Sequence record: PQ561396
Source: Escherichia phage Ec1-ASingh
DNA length: 14,626 nt
Reading direction: 5' to 3' (one strand)
Shown: one piece after another, positions 1-12,414 of the stretch
Layout of the letters: every line of letters starts with the position of its first letter
Position numbering within the stretch: the first letter of the stretch is position 1
Notes under the pieces: model-generated
What the model was told of the DNA's origin: nothing
Database searches by the model: none
What the model saw: the letters and a program-made list of their open reading frames with translations, nothing else
Made by a program: the position numbers and the translations under genes

Positions 1-179
1 GCCAAACCATTGTGCTGCAAGAGGCGCGCCAAATACGGCGCAGGTGAAGCCAGTTGCGATAAAGCAGAAGCCGTCGATAGGACCAGGAATAACGGACTTG
101 TGCTGTCGTAGTCCGATTACCCCACCGGCTAGTGCGGCAGCCAGAAGCCAGCCTGTCACTGTTTCGGTAAATTTATCCA
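1..179 (-). CDS. partial CDS (3' end runs off the window): small hydrophobic, probably membrane protein
   Basis: Minus-strand frame open from 179 to the window edge. First start after the in-frame stop (203-201) is TTG at 179-177, preceded by GGAGGA (191-186). Translation (M)DKFTETVTGWLLAAALAGGVIGLRQHKSVIPGPIDGFCFIATGFTCAVFGAPLAAQWFG has two hydrophobic stretches. Not in the ORF track. Confidence 0.3.
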
Positions 180-239
180 AGATGAATCCTCCATGTGCGT
201 ATTAAGTATGCAGTAACTGGAGGATACCACGGGTAGGAA

Positions 240-680
240 TTATCCTAATAGTTGTTTGGTAATAATCTTGCCGCCGGTGTTGGCATCGAACTTAGACGCA
301 ACAGCTACGCCGCCATGTGCTGAATAACCACATTCCATAGCCGCCAGTGCATAAGGAGAGCCGGACCCAACGGCGGCAAAACCGTCTGCAATAGGGATAA
401 CCGAACTAAGTGCGCAATCCCACGATTTATAGAACGCGACTTTATACAACTTTTCTGTGTCTTTCACGAACACCAGGGCTTCGAAATCGAAGTCATAGTG
501 CTTTGCCAGAAGAATACCAGGGCAATCGATAAGCATATCCCCGATCCCTGCATCGCCAGCCACCCCAATAACAACAAATTCGTTCTCGTATATCTTTGTG
601 TCTGTGTTGTAACAGTCACTCCCACACACAACACGGGTATCACAAGCCATTGTCTTTCCGTCAAACGCGATAGTAGTCAT
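240..680 (-). CDS. Ntn-hydrolase, proteasome beta-subunit / HslV-like peptidase homologue (146 aa)
   Basis: ORF track. N-terminus MTTIAFDG puts Thr at position 2, the mature nucleophile position in proteasome beta/HslV. ACDTRVV resembles the GADTR segment, a conserved Lys follows (DTKIY), and GSGSPYALAA matches the GSGS motif. ATGA overlap with the upstream gene at 677-680. Confidence 0.55.
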   Translation of the reverse strand: MTTIAFDGKTMACDTRVVCGSDCYNTDTKIYENEFVVIGVAGDAGIGDMLIDCPGILLAKHYDFDFEALVFVKDTEKLYKVAFYKSWDCALSSVIPIADGFAAVGSGSPYALAAMECGYSAHGGVAVASKFDANTGGKIITKQLLG

Positions 681-970
681 TTATGTCTCCAGATGTATTG
701 CCGTCTCTGTGGTTTCGTCGGAATATCATCATACCCCAGCGATTTCCAGTAATTAAATAGCCGATTAGCGATTGCTGCGCGTTCCTTTGTCTTGAACTCA
801 CCGAGATTCACGGCATTCCCGTTCTGGAATCCACAGGCACGCACAGCTTTGCGTCTGGCCTGAATCTCAGGGTACAGCGCGTTACGGCGGCGCTTGTGTA
901 TTCGTGTATTCGCTCTCGGCGACAGCGGCGCAAGGCCGCTTCGTTTCAGGATGTCAGTTGCGAGGCTCAT
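677..970 (-). CDS. hypothetical protein (97 aa, basic)
   Basis: ORF track frame 677..1015, start moved to ATG at 970-968, which overlaps the TGA stop (969-967) of the upstream gene (ATGA coupling). Begins MSLATDILKRSG. Confidence 0.5.
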   Translation of the reverse strand: MSLATDILKRSGLAPLSPRANTRIHKRRRNALYPEIQARRKAVRACGFQNGNAVNLGEFKTKERAAIANRLFNYWKSLGYDDIPTKPQRRQYIWRHK

Positions 971-1161
971 ATTCCGAGAATCTCGCGGGCCATTTCTTCT
1001 GTAACTTTCGAACAAGGTGCGTACATTACCTGTTCGGCGAATTCACGTAACTTTGCTTCAAGTTTCAGATAAGCGTCGTATTCTACATAATCGCCGTATG
1101 CGTACTCAGCCATCTCAGGCTCTGGCAGGCCCCATTTTTCCACCTCATACCTCTGTACCAT
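967..1161 (-). CDS. hypothetical protein (64 aa, acidic)
   Basis: ORF track frame 967..1182, start moved to ATG at 1161-1159, preceded by AGGAG with 7-nt spacing and sitting just after the stop (1165-1163) of the upstream gene. Begins MVQRYEVEKWGL. Confidence 0.5.
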   Translation of the reverse strand: MVQRYEVEKWGLPEPEMAEYAYGDYVEYDAYLKLEAKLREFAEQVMYAPCSKVTEEMAREILGI

Positions 1162-1162
1162 G

Positions 1163-1366
1163 TTATTTCTCCTGTTTACCAAGTCGCTTAGGGGAGCAGA
1201 TGGCGCGTACCTCTGAATCGTTGGGCTTGTCGCCCTGAAACAGGAAGTGCGCGTTCTCCGCGGCGCGTGCCGCTGACTGGCACGCCTCCATCGAATAAAA
1301 CGTTTCTGATGCCGCTAGTTGCATCTGGCCTGCGGACAATACCCAGATAAATAAGATGCTGGTCAT
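1163..1366 (-). CDS. hypothetical small protein with N-terminal hydrophobic signal/anchor segment (67 aa)
   Basis: ORF track. ATG 1366-1364 overlaps the TGA (1365-1363) of the upstream gene. N-terminus MTSILFIWVLSAGQMQLAAS is signal-peptide-like; two Cys in the remainder. Confidence 0.45.
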   Translation of the reverse strand: MTSILFIWVLSAGQMQLAASETFYSMEACQSAARAAENAHFLFQGDKPNDSEVRAICSPKRLGKQEK

Positions 1367-1842
1367 GGCTTACGCACTCTGCAATTAAAGCAAACGAAGC
1401 CACTTTTGTGTTTACTATATAACCAATTGTGCTCGCATTCCTGTGTGTCAATCTTGTATTCCACTATGTCTGCGTATGTTCCATCCCAAATCCACGACCG
1501 CTTTTCTGCTGCTACACTGTGTTTCAGCTCCTCCCCGTTGCGATACCGGATAAATACCATAGTCCCATCCGGCACAGGTTGTCGTGCACCATAATGCGGC
1601 CTCCAGGCGTTGTACTGAGTATCTTCCTTACGGCAACCAGATTGCTCCGCTGCTATATAAGCGCCTACGTCGCCTGTAGCTGTAGCCAACGCCTTATGCA
1701 ACTCCTTAATATGTTCTGACGCATCACGTAACTGATTCTTGAGTGACAACACCTCGTGCGCCAGGTCTTCGCACTGGTTGCCATTTACCTGCTGCCGTAA
1801 CTGGCCAATCAGGTATTCGAATACTTCGTTTTTGTTACTCAT
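1363..1842 (-). CDS. hypothetical protein (159 aa)
   Basis: ORF track frame 1363..1848 begins with TTG; the first ATG is at 1842-1840. Coiled-coil-like N-terminal half, Trp/Cys-rich C-terminal half. Confidence 0.55.
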   Translation of the reverse strand: MSNKNEVFEYLIGQLRQQVNGNQCEDLAHEVLSLKNQLRDASEHIKELHKALATATGDVGAYIAAEQSGCRKEDTQYNAWRPHYGARQPVPDGTMVFIRYRNGEELKHSVAAEKRSWIWDGTYADIVEYKIDTQECEHNWLYSKHKSGFVCFNCRVRKP

Positions 1843-1975
1843 CCTCAACCCCCATTTTTATCGCTTTAGTGTCACCGTCGCACACCGAAGTGCTACCCAT
1901 TATTTTGTAAGCAGCTACCAGTGCGCCTAATGTCCAGGAACCATACCAGTCGTACCAATCTGCTGCAGGAATCAT
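1835..1975 (-). CDS. small ORF (45 aa), first gene of the leftward operon; not in the ORF track
   Basis: Hand translation: ATG at 1975-1973, GAGGAG 9 nt upstream (revcomp of 1985-1990), stop TAA at 1837-1835. Product MIPAADWYDWYGSWTLGALVAAYKIMGSTSVCDGDTKAIKMGVEDE. Sits directly downstream of the promoter at 2007-2035. Confidence 0.3.
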   Translation of the reverse strand: MIPAADWYDWYGSWTLGALVAAYKIMGSTSVCDGDTKAIKMGVEDE

Positions 1976-2006
1976 ATTCCGTCTCTCCTCTCGTTTGTGT
2001 AAATGA

Positions 2007-2035
2007 ATAGTAGCCTATTCTATCTCAGTGTGCAA
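2007..2035 (-). promoter_or_regulatory. sigma70-like promoter (minus strand) with embedded palindromic operator GAATAG-TAGC-CTATTC (2005-2020)
   Basis: Read on the minus strand: TTGCAC (2035-2030), 17-nt spacer, TACTAT (2012-2007). The -10 hexamer lies inside one half-site of the perfect 6-4-6 palindrome. RBS and ATG at 1975 follow. Confidence 0.5.
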
Positions 2036-2056
2036 GTAAATTTTATTGGTATTTGT

Positions 2057-2074
2057 ATTGTTGCATCTCCCGCA
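2057..2074. promoter_or_regulatory. variant palindrome CAATAG-N6-CTATTG (related half-sites, different spacing)
   Basis: caatagtcgcttctattg lies between the terminator at 2111-2150 and the promoter at 2007-2035. Same AATAG/CTATT half-sites as the operator family but with a 6-nt spacer. Confidence 0.25.
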
Positions 2075-2110
2075 ATAGTCGCTTCTATTGTTGCGTTTGG
2101 TGAAATAGAA

Positions 2111-2150
2111 CAAAAATGAGAAAAATGATACGCTGCTACACAGCAGCGTA
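2111..2150 (-). terminator. rho-independent terminator for the upstream leftward operon
   Basis: 9-bp stem 2129-2137 / 2142-2150 with loop ACAC. On the minus strand it is followed by a U-rich tract (revcomp of 2111-2128 = TCATTTTTCTCATTTTTG). Confidence 0.6.
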
Positions 2151-2162
2151 AGTCACTAAGCC

Positions 2163-2178
2163 AAATAGTAACCTATTG
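2163..2178. promoter_or_regulatory. operator-family palindrome AAATAG-TAAC-CTATTG without a convincing -35
   Basis: Same 6-4-6 architecture as the promoter-embedded operators. On the minus strand it supplies TACTAT, but the -35 position reads GGTGGT. Lies at the 3' end of the 53-aa ORF, upstream of the terminator. Confidence 0.3.
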
Positions 2179-2334
2179 ACCTGTTACACCACCTGTTACA
2201 CCAGCACGAGCCAGCACACCAGCTTTCCACGCCCGCCACGCGAGACGCGTCTTAACGTTCAGGTACTCTTTCTTCGAACCCTTGTTAACCGGCAGACCCT
2301 CGACGACGGCCCACCGTTCGAATGCTTCTCTCAT
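2173..2334 (-). CDS. small ORF (53 aa); not in the ORF track
   Basis: Hand translation: ATG 2334-2332 preceded by GAGGA (7-nt spacing), stop TAG 2175-2173. Product MREAFERWAVVEGLPVNKGSKKEYLNVKTRLAWRAWKAGVLARAGVTGGVTGQ. Fills the gap between the gene at 2338 and the terminator. Confidence 0.3.
   Translation of the reverse strand: MREAFERWAVVEGLPVNKGSKKEYLNVKTRLAWRAWKAGVLARAGVTGGVTGQ
2180..2203. repeat. perfect 12-bp tandem direct repeat (cctgttacacca x2)
   Basis: Positions 2180-2191 and 2192-2203 are identical. In frame within the 53-aa minus-strand ORF, encoding GVTGGVTG. Confidence 0.6.
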
Positions 2335-2337
2335 ATA

Positions 2338-2529
2338 CTAGTCCTCATCATCTTCTAAGTCGGGGTACACTATGAAATCGCCAAGCCTTTGCAGCTCCAC
2401 ACCAGCCATAAAATAACCAAGTGCTTCGGCTCTTTCGGAATCGGTTTTAAACTCAGACAGAGGATATCTTTCGTAGAACTTGTTAATTAATAACGCCTGG
2501 TCAAACTTAGTCGCATCATAATTATTCAT
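2338..2529 (-). CDS. hypothetical protein (63 aa) with acidic C-terminal tail
   Basis: ORF track frame 2338..2577, start moved to ATG 2529-2527 (GGAG 9 nt upstream), which overlaps the stop of the upstream gene (2524-2522). C-terminus YPDLEDDED. Confidence 0.5.
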   Translation of the reverse strand: MNNYDATKFDQALLINKFYERYPLSEFKTDSERAEALGYFMAGVELQRLGDFIVYPDLEDDED

Positions 2530-2731
2530 AACTAATAACTCCGATAACTTTAGATTCCTCGCACCGGGTGCAACCATGTTCTATGCAGTAGCGCGCCTGC
2601 TTGACGCTTTCGCAACGGGTCAGAGTAACCCACCAGAAAAAGCCAACGCGAACCTGCACGGCAGGTGTAATTCGTTTCTCACCGAAGGCGGTAACCCACT
2701 CCTCGCTAACTATGCGGTATTTACTTAACAC
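2522..2731 (-). CDS. hypothetical Cys4 zinc-ribbon-like small protein (about 69 aa)
   Basis: ORF track frame 2522..2791. The longest form would overlap the upstream gene by 70 nt. GTG at 2731-2729 has GGGAGG 5 nt upstream; ATG at 2767/2764 has no RBS. C-terminal Cys spacing C-x7-C-x4-C-x2-C (TRCESVKQARYCIEHGCTRCEE). Confidence 0.4.
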   Translation of the reverse strand: MLSKYRIVSEEWVTAFGEKRITPAVQVRVGFFWWVTLTRCESVKQARYCIEHGCTRCEESKVIGVISYE

Positions 2732-2927
2732 GGCAACCTCCCTCAGAGTCGTCGGCGCGAGCATCATGATTCGATGCCGTTCGGAGCGCACGTAAAACTT
2801 TCAGCAATAGCTCACATGTCCCGGAAGAAATAGTCGGGCCGTCTAATAAAATAACTTCGTATCTGTTTACCTGGAAATGCACTTTCTCCAGTTTATGATG
2901 TTTCAGTTCTTCAAATAATTCTTCCAT
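2721..2927 (-). CDS. hypothetical protein (68 aa)
   Basis: ORF track. ATG 2927-2925 overlaps the TGA (2929-2927) of the upstream gene; AGGGG 7 nt upstream. Confidence 0.5.
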   Translation of the reverse strand: MEELFEELKHHKLEKVHFQVNRYEVILLDGPTISSGTCELLLKVLRALRTASNHDARADDSEGGCRVK

Positions 2928-3109
2928 CACTTCGCCCCTTTGAATTTAAAATTGTTGCCGATGAGTTTCATATCCTGCGCGTATAACACGGTGAGATAGG
3001 ACCCCGTTAAAGATTCAGCAAAATAGATATTATTTTCTCTATGAAATGTGAAGATAACCGCTAACTCTCCAGTCTCTAAAATTTTCACCAACTGACCCTT
3101 CTTAAACAT
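2927..3109 (-). CDS. hypothetical protein (60 aa), first gene of the second leftward operon
   Basis: ORF track frame 2927..3118 begins with GTG; ATG at 3109-3107 has AGGAG 8 nt upstream. Begins MFKKGQLVKIL. Confidence 0.5.
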   Translation of the reverse strand: MFKKGQLVKILETGELAVIFTFHRENNIYFAESLTGSYLTVLYAQDMKLIGNNFKFKGAK

Positions 3110-3143
3110 AACCCTCACTCCTCTGTCTCGTTTCGATAAGTGA

Positions 3144-3172
3144 ATAGTATCCTATTATGTTGGGGTGTGCAA
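3144..3172 (-). promoter_or_regulatory. sigma70-like promoter (minus strand) with embedded operator GAATAG-TATC-CTATTA (3142-3157)
   Basis: Minus strand: TTGCAC (3172-3167), 17-nt spacer, TACTAT (3149-3144). Identical architecture to the promoter at 2007-2035. An extra GAATAG half-site at 3175-3180. Confidence 0.5.
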
Positions 3173-3214
3173 GAGAATAGTTACGCTGCCGTTGTGATTC
3201 TTTCGTTTCTTTAA

Positions 3215-3269
3215 AGAGTACGCAACGCAGTGGGTGGGCGTCAGCCCACCCCAGCGGAGTGAAGTACTC
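3215..3269. other. nested inverted repeats in a 430-bp non-coding region: perfect 8-bp GC hairpin inside a 7-bp outer inverted repeat
   Basis: Inner GGGTGGGC (3232-3239), loop GTCA, GCCCACCC (3244-3251). Outer AGAGTAC (3215-3221) and GTACTCT (3263-3269). No U-tract on either strand, so not a canonical intrinsic terminator. Confidence 0.5.
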
Positions 3270-3528
3270 TCTACCCTGCTTACGGCAACTATAGAAACTT
3301 TTAATTATCAGTGACTTGGGTATTTAGGTAGGATTAACAATAGACTTTGGCCCTTCCGAAAGCGCCAGCGGAACTACACTCAAGTGCTAAAGCACGCGTT
3401 GCGTTCCCTGCCGCTCCGCGGTCGCTTGCTCATACTTCACAAGCTCAGGTGGAGCTTATCATATTTTTAAGTAAAAGTCAATATCAGTAGCATCTTTTGT
3501 ATCTTAGTAACTTTGTGTGATGTTTTGG

Positions 3529-3557
3529 TTGCTTTTACATTCCCGCTATCCTATACT
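3529..3557 (+). promoter_or_regulatory. candidate sigma70 promoter for the rightward AlpA-like gene; no operator palindrome
   Basis: TTGCTT (3529-3534), 17-nt spacer, TATACT (3552-3557). AGGAG at 3576-3580 and ATG at 3589 follow. Confidence 0.35.
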
Positions 3558-3588
3558 CGTTTTCACCAAACAAACAGGAGATATAAAA

Positions 3589-3771
3589 ATGCAGCATTAC
3601 ATGACACAGAATGAAGTAGCTGAACGTATCGGGGTGACACGTCAGACAATTAATAACTGGTTGCGCAGCGGTAAATTCCCAGATTGCTGTATTAAGGTTA
3701 TGGGTCGCCGTTTACCTGGGACATTTGACCGTAATAAAGTTGAGGCGTGGATTAAGGAGAACGTGAAATGA
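3589..3771 (+). CDS. AlpA/excisionase-like HTH DNA-binding regulator (60 aa)
   Basis: ORF track frame 3517..3771, start moved to ATG 3589 (AGGAG 8 nt upstream). MTQNEVAERIGVTRQTINNWLRSGKFP matches the AlpA/Xis-type helix-turn-helix pattern. Confidence 0.7.
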   Translation: MQHYMTQNEVAERIGVTRQTINNWLRSGKFPDCCIKVMGRRLPGTFDRNKVEAWIKENVK

Positions 3772-4058
3772 AAGGTGTAATTTTCCACGATAAAGAAAAT
3801 GACAGTGCTTATATGGTTTATTTAGTGCAAGGCGAGTACGCGTTGTGCTTTAACGTTTCTTGTAAGCTGGACTCTTATTCACCGTTTTGCGTTACAGACG
3901 AATTGCAGTTGATTAGTCTCCGAAGACTCAGCGCAATGACGGCTTCCATAGACGTATCTGACCACTTAACGTACGTTTATCATTATTTCGGTTATGAGTT
4001 GGTTGCGGATTATTTTGAAGAGTATAAAAATTTGCTGGGTGAGTTAGCAAACCGGTAA
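3768..4058 (+). CDS. hypothetical protein (96 aa)
   Basis: ORF track. ATGA overlap with the AlpA-like gene (ATG 3768-3770, TGA 3769-3771). Confidence 0.6.
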   Translation: MKGVIFHDKENDSAYMVYLVQGEYALCFNVSCKLDSYSPFCVTDELQLISLRRLSAMTASIDVSDHLTYVYHYFGYELVADYFEEYKNLLGELANR

Positions 4059-4063
4059 AAAGA

Positions 4064-4089
4064 AACCCCAACGCCAGAACGTCGGGGTT
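4064..4089 (+). other. imperfect 10-bp hairpin just after the stop of the 96-aa gene (weak terminator or RNA-stability element)
   Basis: AACCCCAACG (4064-4073), 6-nt loop, CGTCGGGGTT (4080-4089), one mismatch. Only UU follows on the plus strand. Confidence 0.3.
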
Positions 4090-4127
4090 AAAGTACAAAT
4101 CATCAAAGTAAGCATAAGGATTATACA

Positions 4128-4256
4128 ATGACAAAGTTAATAGTTCCACAGCTACGCCGCCAGAAACACGGCGCTGATTTCTTCGCACCGGTAAAGATGA
4201 ACCGCGCAATGCGCCGTATGCAGGAAGCCTTAGAACGTGCGGAGAAAAAGAAATGA
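4128..4256 (+). CDS. small basic ORF (42 aa); not in the ORF track
   Basis: Hand translation: ATG 4128 with AAGGA 7 nt upstream; stop TGA 4254-4256 overlaps the primase ATG at 4253 (ATGA). Product MTKLIVPQLRRQKHGADFFAPVKMNRAMRRMQEALERAEKKK. Confidence 0.35.
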   Translation: MTKLIVPQLRRQKHGADFFAPVKMNRAMRRMQEALERAEKKK

Positions 4257-6487
4257 ATATTGTTTTTGCAACGCTGCGTAACACATTCGATAAAAACCCT
4301 GTAGCACGTGAAATGCCGCTGGAGCAGTTCGTAGAGTATGTCTGCGATACATCGAAGCGTTTATCCGTGGACCCGTCATGGACTAAGGAAGAGTACGACG
4401 CCGCCAAGATTAAACAGAAAGCTATTGCACCTGTTGGTGGTCGCCGTAAAAACGCTATCCTGGAAGACAGTGTGGTTAAGTTCGACTTCGACCATCTCAA
4501 CCGTACTCAGTACCGCGACCTTACCCGCAAATTCAAGAACGCGCCATTCTTCAATATTCTGCACACAACGGCGTCGCACCAGCACGCGTGTAAAAACGGG
4601 GATTACGCCTTCCGCGTTCTGGTTCCGGCTCGCACGCCGTTTAACTCTAACGACGCGTGGATGGTGCAACGAGCTATTTGTGCAGAGTTAGAAATAGACG
4701 AAGCCTTGCGTGACCACTGCACAGAAGACGGCAACCGCCTTATCTACCTACCGCATAAAGAGTCGAAGATAACGGTTACAGAAGGTCGTGTTATCCGTGC
4801 CGAGCGGTACATCAAGAAAGCCGAAGAGATGGGGTTGTGTAAACGCGAAGCTAAGACACTTGCCGCCGATGAGCATGGGCTTAACGCTGATATAGCGCAT
4901 TTCTGCGAAGCCGAGCTTGGTCTTGACGCTTTATCTTCCGGGCGCGGGTACGAAGTGCCATGCCCTAACGAACATCTGCATACAGGCAAAGGCTCCACCA
5001 GCATCATGCTTGATGGTAAAGAAGTTCGCTTCGTGTGTCAGCACACAAACAACGGCGCTTGCACTGAGCTTAACCGCCGACAACATTTGGCCCTGCGTAT
5101 GTGCGGCCTTCCGGACGAGCTTAACGTAGACAAGCAACCTATCAGTATTAACAGCATTCGTGCGGCTCTGCCTGATTTACCAGATGAAGAGATTGAAGAA
5201 CTGCACCGCACCGAGAACGAGGATCCTGTAACTTGCAGCCTGGAAGACCTTGAAGAAGAGGACGAGTTACCAGAACCGGTAAAGGCTGATTTCGTCGTTG
5301 AAGGGTACATGCCATCAGATTGTATATGGGATATTGTCGGGGAATCTGGCACGTACAAATCATTCTATACGCTGGGGATGATGTATCTCAGCGCCGCCGG
5401 ATACCGGTTTGCGGGGGCGGACACCCAGCGTTGCCACCATTTTTATATCGACGGTGAAGGCGGTGCAGCTACACGCACACGTATTGATGCACTCGCGGCT
5501 AAATATGGCGCGGAAGGTAAAGATTATGTACATGTCATCGATATGGGAGAAGTCGGCAAACTGAAAAGCCTGATTAAGTTAATGCGCGAAACTGCTGGCG
5601 ACGAGCCAATTGGGATGGTCGCGTTCGACACCCTCAACCAGACGCTGGCCCTTACGATTGATAAGTTCGACGAGAACAGTTCCTCGACGGCAATCGGCAT
5701 GGGTAAAGTTATCGCCATCCTGAAAGAAGTACGCGATGCGACTAAAGCCGCGGTAGGCGTCGTCCACCATACACCGAAGGGTGGCAAGAAAGCCCGTGGC
5801 AGCGGCGCTCTGTATGCAGGCGTTGATGTGGAACTGACAATCGAACGTGCCACCGACCGTCAGATAAACGTATATCACTCTAAATTTAAGCACGGGCCGC
5901 AGCAGAAAACGGTTGGCATGGTGCTGGAGTCGGTACAGTTCCGTGAAGCACCACCGCCGAAAGAGTACCGCGCTGTTGAATTCCTTGGCAGCACAGAGGA
6001 ATACGGCACAATCGTAAACCTGGACCTGCCTGAGCCGCACAAGGCACTTGTGCTGATGCCGTGGGGGTTCGAACCGTTCAAGACCGACGAGGAGAAAGAG
6101 CGTGAAGAAGGGATGGCAAAGGAAGGTAAAGAAAATGTACGTAAAACCGTAGAGAACGCCGTCAACAGTTCGGAAGCCACGATACTCGCGGCGTTTGAAC
6201 TGGCGGAAGGAACCTACAACGGCAACGAAGGCATCACGGTAGCCGCAGCGAATAAGCTCGCACAGTCCGACCCTAACGCAAAGGCGTTCAACTCCAAAGA
6301 AGCCATAGAACGCGGGAAGATTAAGAAAATGGTTGAGGCCGGGTATCTTGTGCCTGGTACTGACGAAAATAATCAGATAATCCCTGGTCGCTACAGGCTT
6401 AACACCAGGATAACGGATAACAAAATTCCTAAGACAATATACGAACCGAATGAGATGCTGATAGTGACAGAGGAAGATTTGGAGTAG
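4253..6487 (+). CDS. replication protein, putative primase/helicase: N-terminal Cys/His-cluster domain, acidic linker, C-terminal RecA-like ATPase (744 aa)
   Basis: ORF track. C-terminal half has a P-loop-like GESGTYKS, Walker-B-like MVAFDT, VVHHTPKGG and RGSGALYAGVD, a pattern typical of RepA/AAA_25-type replicative ATPases. N-terminal half has CPNEHLH...CQHTNNGAC. The C-terminal assignment is stronger than the N-terminal one. Confidence 0.8.
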   Translation: MNIVFATLRNTFDKNPVAREMPLEQFVEYVCDTSKRLSVDPSWTKEEYDAAKIKQKAIAPVGGRRKNAILEDSVVKFDFDHLNRTQYRDLTRKFKNAPFFNILHTTASHQHACKNGDYAFRVLVPARTPFNSNDAWMVQRAICAELEIDEALRDHCTEDGNRLIYLPHKESKITVTEGRVIRAERYIKKAEEMGLCKREAKTLAADEHGLNADIAHFCEAELGLDALSSGRGYEVPCPNEHLHTGKGSTSIMLDGKEVRFVCQHTNNGACTELNRRQHLALRMCGLPDELNVDKQPISINSIRAALPDLPDEEIEELHRTENEDPVTCSLEDLEEEDELPEPVKADFVVEGYMPSDCIWDIVGESGTYKSFYTLGMMYLSAAGYRFAGADTQRCHHFYIDGEGGAATRTRIDALAAKYGAEGKDYVHVIDMGEVGKLKSLIKLMRETAGDEPIGMVAFDTLNQTLALTIDKFDENSSSTAIGMGKVIAILKEVRDATKAAVGVVHHTPKGGKKARGSGALYAGVDVELTIERATDRQINVYHSKFKHGPQQKTVGMVLESVQFREAPPPKEYRAVEFLGSTEEYGTIVNLDLPEPHKALVLMPWGFEPFKTDEEKEREEGMAKEGKENVRKTVENAVNSSEATILAAFELAEGTYNGNEGITVAAANKLAQSDPNAKAFNSKEAIERGKIKKMVEAGYLVPGTDENNQIIPGRYRLNTRITDNKIPKTIYEPNEMLIVTEEDLE

Positions 6488-6740: not shown

Positions 6741-6770
6741 TTGATATGTGAATAGTACCATATTAATTAT
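6741..6770 (-). promoter_or_regulatory. operator GAATAG-TACC-ATATTA (6750-6765) over a candidate extended -10 promoter of the XRE repressor gene
   Basis: Minus strand reads TGGTACTAT (TG at 6760-6759, TACTAT at 6757-6752), about 24 nt upstream of the RBS. The -35 is poor. A plus-strand reading (TTGATA 6741-6746, 17 nt, TAATTA) is weak. Confidence 0.4.
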
Positions 6771-6784
6771 TTTAGAAAAGCCCA

Positions 6785-6813
6785 TTGACATGTGAATAGT
6801 TCGCTATTATAGT
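6785..6813 (+). promoter_or_regulatory. sigma70 promoter of the rightward replication operon with operator GAATAG-TTCG-CTATTA (6794-6809) in the spacer
   Basis: TTGACA (6785-6790), 17-nt spacer, TATAGT (6808-6813). GAGGAG at 6831-6836 and ATG at 6845 follow. Confidence 0.55.
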
Positions 6814-8924: not shown

Positions 8925-8953
8925 TTGACACCTGAATAGCGAACTATTATAGT
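8925..8953 (+). promoter_or_regulatory. sigma70 promoter with operator GAATAG-CGAA-CTATTA (8934-8949) in the spacer
   Basis: TGTTGACA (-35 at 8925-8930), 17-nt spacer, TATAGT (8948-8953). Same architecture as 6785-6813. Drives the SSB-like and polymerase genes. Confidence 0.55.
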
Positions 8954-12122: not shown

Positions 12123-12414
12123 GGGGCGCGTCCAAAAATACGCAAAAGAGCAATTCGAGGCCATTGGTGGCCTCGTTCGTAAACTTTCCTACGAAAATAG
12201 AGCGGGCGCTCCTGACCTGCTGGTAATTCTCCCTGGCGGCATAGTCTGGTTCGTCGAGGTTAAGAAAGACGAAAACACGAAGCCAGACCCACACCAGCTA
12301 CGGGAGCACGAGCGGATGCGTAAACGGGGCGCAAATGTTTTTGTCGTTGGCTCTATAAAACAGGTTGACGACCTAATAGAGGGCTATTATAGTAGCCACA
12401 CACCAACAATATAA
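12109..12414 (+). CDS. VRR-NUC domain nuclease (101 aa)
   Basis: ORF track. GAGGGG 7 nt upstream. PD-(D/E)XK core GAPDLLVILPGGIVWFVEVKK with downstream Gln (PHQLREHE), the pattern of VRR-NUC proteins. Confidence 0.75.
   Translation: MSTPEGRVQKYAKEQFEAIGGLVRKLSYENRAGAPDLLVILPGGIVWFVEVKKDENTKPDPHQLREHERMRKRGANVFVVGSIKQVDDLIEGYYSSHTPTI

Follow-up and report, generated by a model that had tools for sequence, protein, structure and literature searches.

Gene organization of the leftward block

The window analyzed here is the whole stretch of 14,626 nucleotides (nt) from Escherichia phage Ec1-ASingh (PQ561396), and the subject of this report is the block of small leftward genes at positions 1..3109, together with the promoter cassettes that precede its two transcription units and the structured RNA that adjoins it. 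A first-pass annotation, made from the letters alone, had described this block as two operons of host-takeover or anti-defence cargo. Megablast searches with positions 1..3600 and with the whole window matched only Guernseyvirinae siphophages, that is, Kagunavirus phages of E. coli and Raoultella and Jerseyvirus phages of Salmonella, and the closest records were ~90% identical across ~80% of the window. Judged from this identity and from the synteny with annotated genomes, the source is a virulent Kagunavirus (Guernseyvirinae) siphophage. Seven annotated relatives were used for comparison, namely Snoke (MK931441), vB-Eco-KMB36 (OR525703), LotteLoewe_Bas71 (PQ850615), fPoEco01 (MT711526), VIPECOMC04, G AB-2017, and RP180, while the presence or absence of each gene was counted in 14 non-identical genomes. 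All seven annotated relatives have a common layout, in which a divergent intergenic region separates a rightward arm with a helix-turn-helix (HTH) gene, a helicase-primase, and the replication genes from a leftward arm with small hypothetical genes, an optional "HslV-family" protease, two holins, and an endolysin. A scan for tRNA and tmRNA genes found none.

The chain of leftward open reading frames (ORFs) in two units was confirmed, and the coordinates given earlier proved to be correct within one base (1163..1366, 2522..2731, 2338..2529, 1835..1975, and the ATG at 3109), but reading of the minus strand gave 12 ORFs (g1–g12, Table 1) instead of eleven. The coupling by ATGA or few-nucleotide overlaps was also borne out, with overlaps of 1, 11, 8, 8, 4, 4, and 4 nt and gaps of 3 and 1 nt. 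In unit 1, g1 and g2 overlap by 1 nt (TGATG), g2 and g3 by 11 nt, and g3 and g4 by 8 nt, and g4 is separated from g5 by 3 nt; in unit 2, g6 and g7 overlap by 8 nt, ATGA joins g7 to g8, g9 to g10, and g10 to g11, and a 1-nt gap lies between g8 and g9. Only g5 and g6 (197-nt spacer) and g11 and g12 (59-nt gap) are farther apart. A PHROG family was found for every ORF, and the ratio of nonsynonymous to synonymous differences (pN/pS) against the relatives was 0.06–0.20 for g4, g5, g7, g8, g10, g11, and g12 (0.08 for g4 and 0.06 for g8), 0.31 for g9, and 0.47–0.61 for g1, g2, and g6, with the highest value, 0.61, at g1. It is extremely improbable that the small ORFs are chance frames in a largely non-coding region: even though several of them have fewer than 70 codons and the ribosome-binding sites of g8 and g10 are weak, pN/pS is far under 1 for most ORFs, each has its PHROG family, homologues exist in hundreds of genomes, and the frames are tightly packed with coupling overlaps. 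As judged from selection and conservation, the ORFs are genuine genes.

Table 1. Coordinates of the genes and other features of the leftward block and of related elements (window positions unless another record is named)
Feature	Position	Strand	Description
g1	2927..3109	-	60 aa, basic, phrog_12538
g2	2721..2927	-	68 aa, variable cargo
g3	2522..2731	-	69 aa, GTG start after GAGGGAGG, phrog_2010
g4	2338..2529	-	63 aa, acidic, phrog_27229
g5	2173..2334	-	53 aa, basic (pI 10.6), phrog_15836, last gene of unit 1
g6	1835..1975	-	46 aa, acidic, variable
g7	1363..1842	-	159 aa, ATG at 1842, modular coiled-coil/Zn-knuckle protein
g8	1163..1366	-	67 aa, phrog_3766
g9	967..1161	-	64 aa, acidic (pI 4.4, net -7)
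g10	677..970	-	97 aa, pI 11.3, AP2-like
g11	240..680	-	146 aa, HslV/proteasome-beta-like Ntn peptidase
g12	1..180	-	first 60 holin codons, TTG start at 180 after GGAGG, gene cut by the window edge
P1 cassette (putative promoter)	3143..3172	-	TTGCAC 3172..3167, 17 nt, TACTAT 3149..3144
P2 cassette (putative promoter)	2006..2035	-	TTGCAC 2035..2030, 17 nt, TACTAT 2012..2007
Intrinsic terminator ending unit 1	2119..2150	-	stem TACGCTGCT/AGCAGCGTA, 4-nt loop, then TCATTTTTCT
Extra palindrome	2164..2177		AATAGGTTACTATT, overlaps the g5 stop codon, also in L005 and L007
Replication-gene promoter with palindrome	6785..6813	+	TTGACA-tgtg-AATAGTTCGCTATT-ATAGT, conserved in Bas71
Equivalent rightward palindrome promoter	8925..8953	+	
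Equivalent rightward palindrome promoter	12365..12393	+	
Weaker rightward palindrome promoter	6741..6769	+	
Divergent promoter and HTH_17 gene	3529..3771	+	TTGCTT 3529..3534, 17 nt, TATACT 3552..3557; gene 3589..3771
P0 (putative promoter)	3453..3481	-	extended -10: TTGACT 3481..3476, 17-nt spacer ending in TGn, TAAGCT 3458..3453
Structured RNA, ~250 nt	3200..3447	-	downstream of P0, in the 400-bp gap upstream of g1
Second RNA copy in relatives	L018 2380..2740		Salmonella phage FSL SP-101; also L019 (vB_VIPECOTPH05A) and many IMG/VR loci (L020-L060)

Putative promoter–operator cassettes at the start of both units

The stretches ahead of g1 and g6 constitute a 53-nt direct repeat (3126-3178 and 1989-2041) with 75% identity, and the only two exact matches of TTGCAC-17-TACTAT in the window are those of the P1 and P2 cassettes. 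In P1, the palindrome AATAGGATACTATT (3156..3143) covers the -10 box and the leader AAACGAGACAGAGGAG lies downstream, while in P2 the palindrome AATAGGCTACTATT (2019..2006) lies over the -10 box and is followed by the leader AAACGAGAGGAGAGA; the motif common to the two leaders is AAACGAGAGGAG. The 14-bp palindrome AATAG-N4-CTATT is present at six exact sites in the 14.6 kb, compared with 0.33 expected, and all six are at promoter-like or intergenic positions. When one mismatch was allowed, eight matches were observed, a number reached by none of 200 shuffles. The palindromes of P1 and P2 are kept in all seven annotated relatives, where the half-sites are invariant and the central four bases and the flanks vary, and the first gene after P2 differs among these phages despite the kept half-sites. 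The rightward sites belong to near-consensus TTGACA/TTGACG-17-TATAGT sequences, in which the palindrome is situated inside the 17-bp spacer (at 6795, 8935, and 12375, with a one-mismatch copy at 6751). These results upheld, at the level of sequence and comparison, the earlier claim that both units start at operator-bearing promoters, their promoter activity being a prediction, and they point to a putative regulon that would comprise P1, P2, and the rightward replication-gene promoters. An auxiliary role, or one in looping, is conceivable for the extra palindrome at 2164..2177, whose distance from the P2 operator downstream is 158 bp.

Unit 1 ends at an intrinsic terminator in the inter-unit spacer, formed by a hairpin (2150..2129; 9-bp stem, 5 GC pairs) and a T-run, with a fold energy of -15.4 kcal/mol; the record of phage Snoke likewise has an annotated terminator in the corresponding spacer. 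In two relatives (L005 and L007) the stem of this terminator is identical and the 4-nt loop is reverse-complemented (GTGT vs ACAC), as would be expected from inversion of the loop between the inverted repeats of the hairpin. Neither a promoter nor a terminator was found in the 59 nt that precede the holin gene g12.

Core and exchangeable genes

The distribution of the genes in the 14 genomes differed markedly between the two units. In unit 1, the variable genes g2 (full-length in 2/14 genomes), g3 (rare cargo, 1/14), and g4 (4/14) are inserted between the conserved g1, which is the first gene after P1 in 12 genomes, and the core gene g5, which is present in all 14. The last ~20 codons of g2 (2730..2789) are kept in all relatives, even where the remainder of the gene differs, and this conserved end looks like a recombination junction ahead of the start of the next gene. 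In unit 2, g10 was found in all 14 genomes, g7 and g9 in 13 (g9 being duplicated in some), the accessory g11 in 8, and g6 in 6. The count of g8 in this matrix was low, which is an artefact of crude ORF calling, and its product is 91–100% identical in all seven annotated relatives. Thus, as far as gene content and pN/pS can tell, only unit 1 behaves as swappable cargo, while unit 2 is mostly core under purifying selection. Nor is unit 2, by its gene content, a pure early-takeover operon, because it ends in a predicted protease and a holin/endolysin cassette: g11 encodes a probable peptidase and g12 a holin, so the unit leads into the lysis genes.

These distributions bear directly on the interpretation that the small genes are host-takeover or anti-defence factors, for which the best candidates are the variable g2–g4, g1 with its fast evolution, and g4 and g9, whose acidic products may mimic DNA. 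We regard this interpretation as possible but not probable. Gene content is indeed variable between g1 and g5 and directly downstream of P2, the two units together holding 46 ORF families in the 14 genomes, and g1 keeps its position while its product is only 37–47% identical in the seven annotated relatives and has the pN/pS of 0.61 mentioned above; the products of g4 and g9 have pI values of 4.1 and 4.4, and no structural or replication homologue was found for any candidate. Against this, no similarity to solved anti-defence proteins was detected, as searches of PDB sequences with g1, g4, and g9 gave zero matches, no PADLOC model was hit, and Pfam, PHROG, and NCBIfam provided no informative names. 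Unit 2, being core and strongly constrained, fits basic phage functions better than arms-race cargo, and the operator of P1 and P2 is shared with the replication-gene promoters. In addition, Kagunaviruses were reported to be highly sensitive to restriction-modification systems (PMC11990801), which argues against a broad anti-restriction function. The description of the products as unrecognisable and uncharacterised remained valid for nine of the 12, g1–g9, which had no meaningful Pfam, NCBIfam, or PADLOC match and only PHROGs of "unknown function"; g10 (AP2-like), g11 (HslV family), and g12 (holin) were assigned to families.

Considering these results, we concluded, with a probability of roughly 70%, that the region 1..3109 is a conserved Kagunavirus leftward block with two tandem sigma-70 promoter–operator cassettes and exchangeable small genes between them. 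The P1 and P2 cassettes would serve as fixed junctions, between which the small genes are swapped among phages. Unit 1 would be transcribed from P1 through g1–g5 to the intrinsic terminator, with a conserved first and last gene and variable cargo inside, and unit 2 from P2 through g6–g11, mostly core genes with the accessory HslV-like peptidase after g10. Because no terminator or recognisable promoter lies between g11 and g12, unit 2 would continue into the holin/endolysin lysis cassette. Several points weigh against this conclusion. The -35 box of P1 and P2 fits the consensus at only three of six positions, and a generic promoter scanner, which required at least 4/6 matches per hexamer, called neither of them and did not call P0 either, so that the promoter activity of P0, P1, and P2 is predicted from manual reading and conservation. 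Moreover, the palindrome at 2164 has no recognisable -35 box or promoter of its own, thus not every palindrome is a promoter operator. Finally, in the accessible part of the RNA-seq report on the relative K1B4, 57 ORFs were called, among which the small genes are largely missing and have no stated temporal class (PMC12645636).

The HTH gene and a model of regulation

The promoter of the divergent HTH_17 gene (3529..3557) lacks the palindrome, and none is present between 3157 and 4412. The HTH_17 protein is 98–100% identical in six of the seven relatives and 86% identical in L005. According to the accessible part of the K1B4 report, the orthologue of this gene is among only four genes classified as "early", and the helicase and the lysozyme are "middle" (PMC12645636). 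In the regulatory model suggested by this arrangement, the operator-less HTH-gene promoter would fire first, and then a dimeric DNA-binding protein of the phage would sit on AATAG-N4-CTATT and jointly lower the activity of P1, P2, and the replication promoters. The prime candidate for the binder is the HTH_17 protein, and the AP2-like g10 protein is an alternative. We infer this timing logic from the absence of the operator at the HTH-gene promoter and its presence in the spacers of three or more promoters of replication genes. Since the operator is shared, the sequences suggest that P1 and P2 probably belong to the same class as the replication promoters, which would be delayed and then repressed, rather than to immediate-early takeover promoters.

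Alternatively, the palindrome could be an activator site or a promoter element, and in this case P1 and P2 would be positively controlled delayed promoters. The poor -35 hexamers of P1 and P2 would be in line with such a role, and so would the name "transcriptional activator" given to the HTH protein in the KMB36 record and the MerR/excisionase-like nature of HTH_17, as MerR-type proteins activate from the spacer. However, the near-consensus TTGACA-17-TATAGT promoters at the rightward sites should need no activation, the position of the palindrome in the spacer or over the -10 box is the classic one for occlusion, and the spacers are 17 bp long compared with 19–20 bp in MerR-type promoters. 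We therefore consider positive control unlikely and prefer repression through a shared operator.

Products of units 1 and 2

g10 encodes a core product that is 93–96% identical across the relatives. It was found in 490 phage records, all of them Guernseyvirinae, in which the Jerseyvirus copies are 30–35% identical, and the family is small, with 42 clusters at 90% identity and 64 representatives (E <=1e-3) among 1.84 billion proteins. The protein has a pI of 11.3 and an Arg-rich N-terminal half, and the AF2 model (pLDDT 70.8) consists of a beta-hairpin and a helix. The alignment of the wider family revealed the AP2 signature PGV...W.A...LG.F.T.ERA.IA, and the Pfam scan detected AP2 in 13 of 50 family members (best E 1e-5) and no other family in any member. 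Comparison with the AtERF1 domain by hhalign gave a probability of 88.9% (P = 2.4e-6). On the basis of these alignments and the predicted fold, g10 is best read as a core AP2-like nucleic-acid-binding protein, and it is likely not cargo.

g11 matched phrog_1040, "peptidase HslV family" (1.1e-34), begins with MTTIAF, and is annotated as a protease in the relatives. Its Pfam Proteasome match (9e-4, 19.3 bits) is under the cutoff of 22.4, and its PDB sequence matches are weak (E 0.1-0.3). By its PHROG match, it is probably an HslV/proteasome-beta-like peptidase. The ORF at 1..179, which had been taken for a small hydrophobic peptide, is in fact the truncated 5′ part of a holin gene that starts with TTG at 180: g12 matched phrog_2359 "holin" (1.4e-16), it scores 1.78 on the Kyte-Doolittle scale, and the genes next to its orthologue in the relatives, in the downstream direction, are those of a second holin and the endolysin. 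By homology, g12 thus represents the N-terminal 60 residues of a holin.

The product of g7 is modular, with a conserved N-terminal coiled coil, the linker EQSGCRKEDTQ, a small beta domain, and a CxH..CxxC knuckle. It belongs to a large and mosaic family (1313 clusters), in which the N-terminal coiled coil hardly varies, insertions occur, and the number of CxH..CxxC knuckles ranges from one to three. The linker (EQSGCRKEDTQ / RKEDTQEC) is nearly invariant in the family and recurs between swapped or repeated modules, and this recurrence suggests recombination at the linker. Residues 24-53 of g7 are 43–45% identical to residues 20-49 of T7 gp5.9 (SLKNQL..A.E...EL...L), a parallel coiled-coil RecBCD inhibitor that works as an acidic DNA mimic (PMC9836394). 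In a local hhalign comparison, the two proteins were aligned with 89.9% probability (P = 1.7e-6) and 21.9 bits, far above the 12.2 bits of the best of 5000 shuffles. Compromised RecBCD is the trigger of the Old system. The variable sensitivity of Kagunaviruses to Old (PMC11990801) is a further point for the assumption that g7, as a relative of gp5.9, inhibits RecBCD (or MukBEF) by acting as a dimeric coiled-coil DNA mimic. Nevertheless, this assumption is very doubtful: the E-values against the whole PDB were not significant (0.063 with the profile and 0.37 with the single sequence), keratin coiled coils scored equally or better, and g7 has extra domains that are absent from gp5.9. Its N-terminus is not highly acidic either, since residues 1-62 have a pI of 5.4 with 9 acidic and 6 basic residues, compared with a pI of 4.1 and 13 acidic and 5 basic residues in gp5.9. 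Consequently, this borderline sequence similarity was treated as a lead and not as membership in the gp5.9 family.

As for the remaining small proteins, g8 had been described as signal-peptide-like. Its N-terminus is only moderately hydrophobic (1.37 in a 19-residue Kyte-Doolittle window) and contains the h-region ILFIWVLSAG, a possible LAA|S site, and two Cys, but the n-region has no basic residue and so lacks the positive charge; its sequence allows that g8 may be exported or membrane-anchored. The possibility that g8 is the missing spanin was rejected, as a lipobox is missing from g8 and the relatives encode an Rz-like spanin in the region of the head genes. A transmembrane role was also rejected for g6, formerly described as a hydrophobic peptide, whose best 19-residue Kyte-Doolittle value of 1.07 is not membrane-like. 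The acidic tail noted in g4 is indeed present (DLEDDED; pI 4.1, net charge -9). By contrast, the Cys4 zinc ribbon proposed for g3 (C-x10-C-x4-C-x2-C; Cys 40, 51, 56, and 59) could not be maintained, because the four Cys are not conserved even in homologues 86–93% identical: C51 is replaced by Tyr and C59 by Arg, and only C40 is widely kept.

A structured RNA upstream of g1

The gap upstream of g1 contains a further putative promoter, P0, and downstream of it a region that would be transcribed into a structured RNA (Table 1). In 50 unique copies of P0 from relatives, TAAGCT is identical in all and TTGACT is present in nearly all, with TCGACT in one. The RNA contains a 5′ hairpin (GCUUGU/ACAAGC), a long-range helix between 3405..3395 and 3230..3220, a variable hairpin (GUGC-UUUA-GCAC), and a GC hairpin (3251..3232). 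In an alignment of 14 sequences, which represent only ~3 independent sequence types, 94% of the alignment cells were paired vs 31–47% in slid controls, and 12 pairs changed on both sides vs 1–3 in the controls; the three sequence types of the relatives keep the same helices via compensating changes. The plus strand was rejected as the RNA sense because it had fewer paired cells (86% vs 94%) and fewer G.U cells (16 vs 81) than the minus strand. A search of Rfam with positions 1..4300 and the intergenic regions gave no family. At its 3′ end (3211..3218, minus strand), this sequence type alone carries CUCUUUAA, which exactly matches the rrn boxA core, while the other type has CGCUCGCUA; the match may be due to chance.

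In Jerseyviruses and Kagunaviruses, a second copy of the RNA is located between a Hoc-like decoration gene and the genes of the Rz-like spanin, the scaffold, and the major head protein. It has the same promoter and ~83% identity over the first 143 nt, and many contigs carry both copies. The second copy ends in a GC hairpin, GCGCCCCGCC/GGCGGGGC, and the U-rich UUUACUUAU, immediately before the ribosome-binding site of the spanin gene. The late-region copies in L018 and L019 also have CTATTCGAATAG, in which the operator half-sites stand in reversed order, directly before TTGACT. In Bas71 (L003 6455..6950) and fEg-Eco19, the early RNA is replaced by an unrelated module of the same architecture. 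The module of Bas71 comprises TTGAAA-18-TATAAT, strong hairpins, and the terminator-like GGGCAGGC/GCCTGCCC with TTTAGTT, and it is partly annotated as two tiny coding sequences.

In the proposed model, P0 would be a stronger upstream promoter that, together with the ~250-nt structured RNA, also feeds unit 1. The RNA may promote antitermination in the manner of the cis-acting put RNA of HK022 (PMC9378689), serve as an attenuator leader, or act on its own as a small RNA. A broader timing circuit of Guernseyvirinae can be imagined, in which leader RNAs (in cis or via g10) would permit reading through 2150..2119 to the lysis genes, the operator would shut off P1, P2, and the replication promoters, and g7 would target RecBCD, but this combination is speculative and we find it quite improbable.

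Significance of the block

On the whole, the first-pass observation was real and mostly accurate, while support for its generic interpretation was only partial. Well over 100 deposited Kagunavirus and Jerseyvirus genomes already contain this ordinary set of small hypothetical genes, and the value of the region lies mostly in the corrected map. Since Kagunaviruses are included in the BASEL collection, this map shows experimenters which genes are swappable cargo (g2–g4 and g6) and which are core (g5, g7, g8, and g10). The remaining interest is attached to the operator regulon, the AP2-like core protein, and the adjoining structured RNA. The AP2-like g10 and the AATAG-N4-CTATT regulon offer a testable model of temporal control in a group of virulent siphophages without described regulation, and the RNA, with two copies per genome, represents a family not yet curated, with a possible role in controlling read-through into lysis and late genes.

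Comparison with known systems

The leftward blocks of the Kagunaviruses Snoke, KMB36, fPoEco01, and Bas71 have the same gene order as the window, including the terminator spacer between the small-gene groups, and have g5, g7, g8, g10, and g12 in common with it at 75–100% identity. Their cargo is unlike that of the window, in which g3 is present in 0/13 other genomes and g2 in one other. The operator, P0, and the structured RNA are marked in none of the nine relative records with annotation tables that were inspected.

Among the proteins, g10 resembles the AP2/ERF domain (PF00847; AtERF1 and proteins of phages and mobile elements), but the g10 of the window lacks the first strand (the "YRGV" position) and has no Pfam score itself, and features particular to the g10 family are the invariant MSLATDIL peptide at the N-terminus and a linker rich in Arg and Lys, in a stand-alone protein of 97 aa. 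g11 shares with HslV and the proteasome beta subunit the Thr after the N-terminal Met, besides its PHROG HslV match; in contrast to HslV, it is shorter (146 aa), falls under the Pfam gathering score, has no HslU-like partner nearby, and is absent from some Kagunaviruses. g7 and T7 gp5.9 (a RecBCD and MukBEF inhibitor; PDB 8B1R) are both non-structural phage proteins and are alike in ~30 coiled-coil residues, but g7 is three times longer, with a beta domain and a Zn knuckle in addition, and does not show the extreme acidity by which the DNA mimic is defined.

The cassettes can be compared with the early operons of lambdoid phages, where the operators of Cro and CI are likewise short palindromes that overlap the -10 box or spacer of several promoters, and where divergent promoters and a small HTH gene, first on one arm, are likewise found. 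However, this phage is virulent and has no repressor/integrase module, it has one operator per promoter instead of three, at least five promoters, the replication-gene promoters among them, carry the operator, and the binder is represented here by candidates only. Similar to HK022 put and the lambda PR'-6S-tR' leader, the RNA upstream of g1 is conserved, structured, and located directly downstream of a putatively strong promoter. A further likeness is that each genome has two homologous copies, the late one of which is followed by a GC hairpin and a U-rich tract just ahead of the genes. As differences, the RNA is much longer (~190–250 vs ~70 nt) and has no sequence or Rfam similarity, and the terminal hairpin of the copy in this window is not followed by a U-tract.

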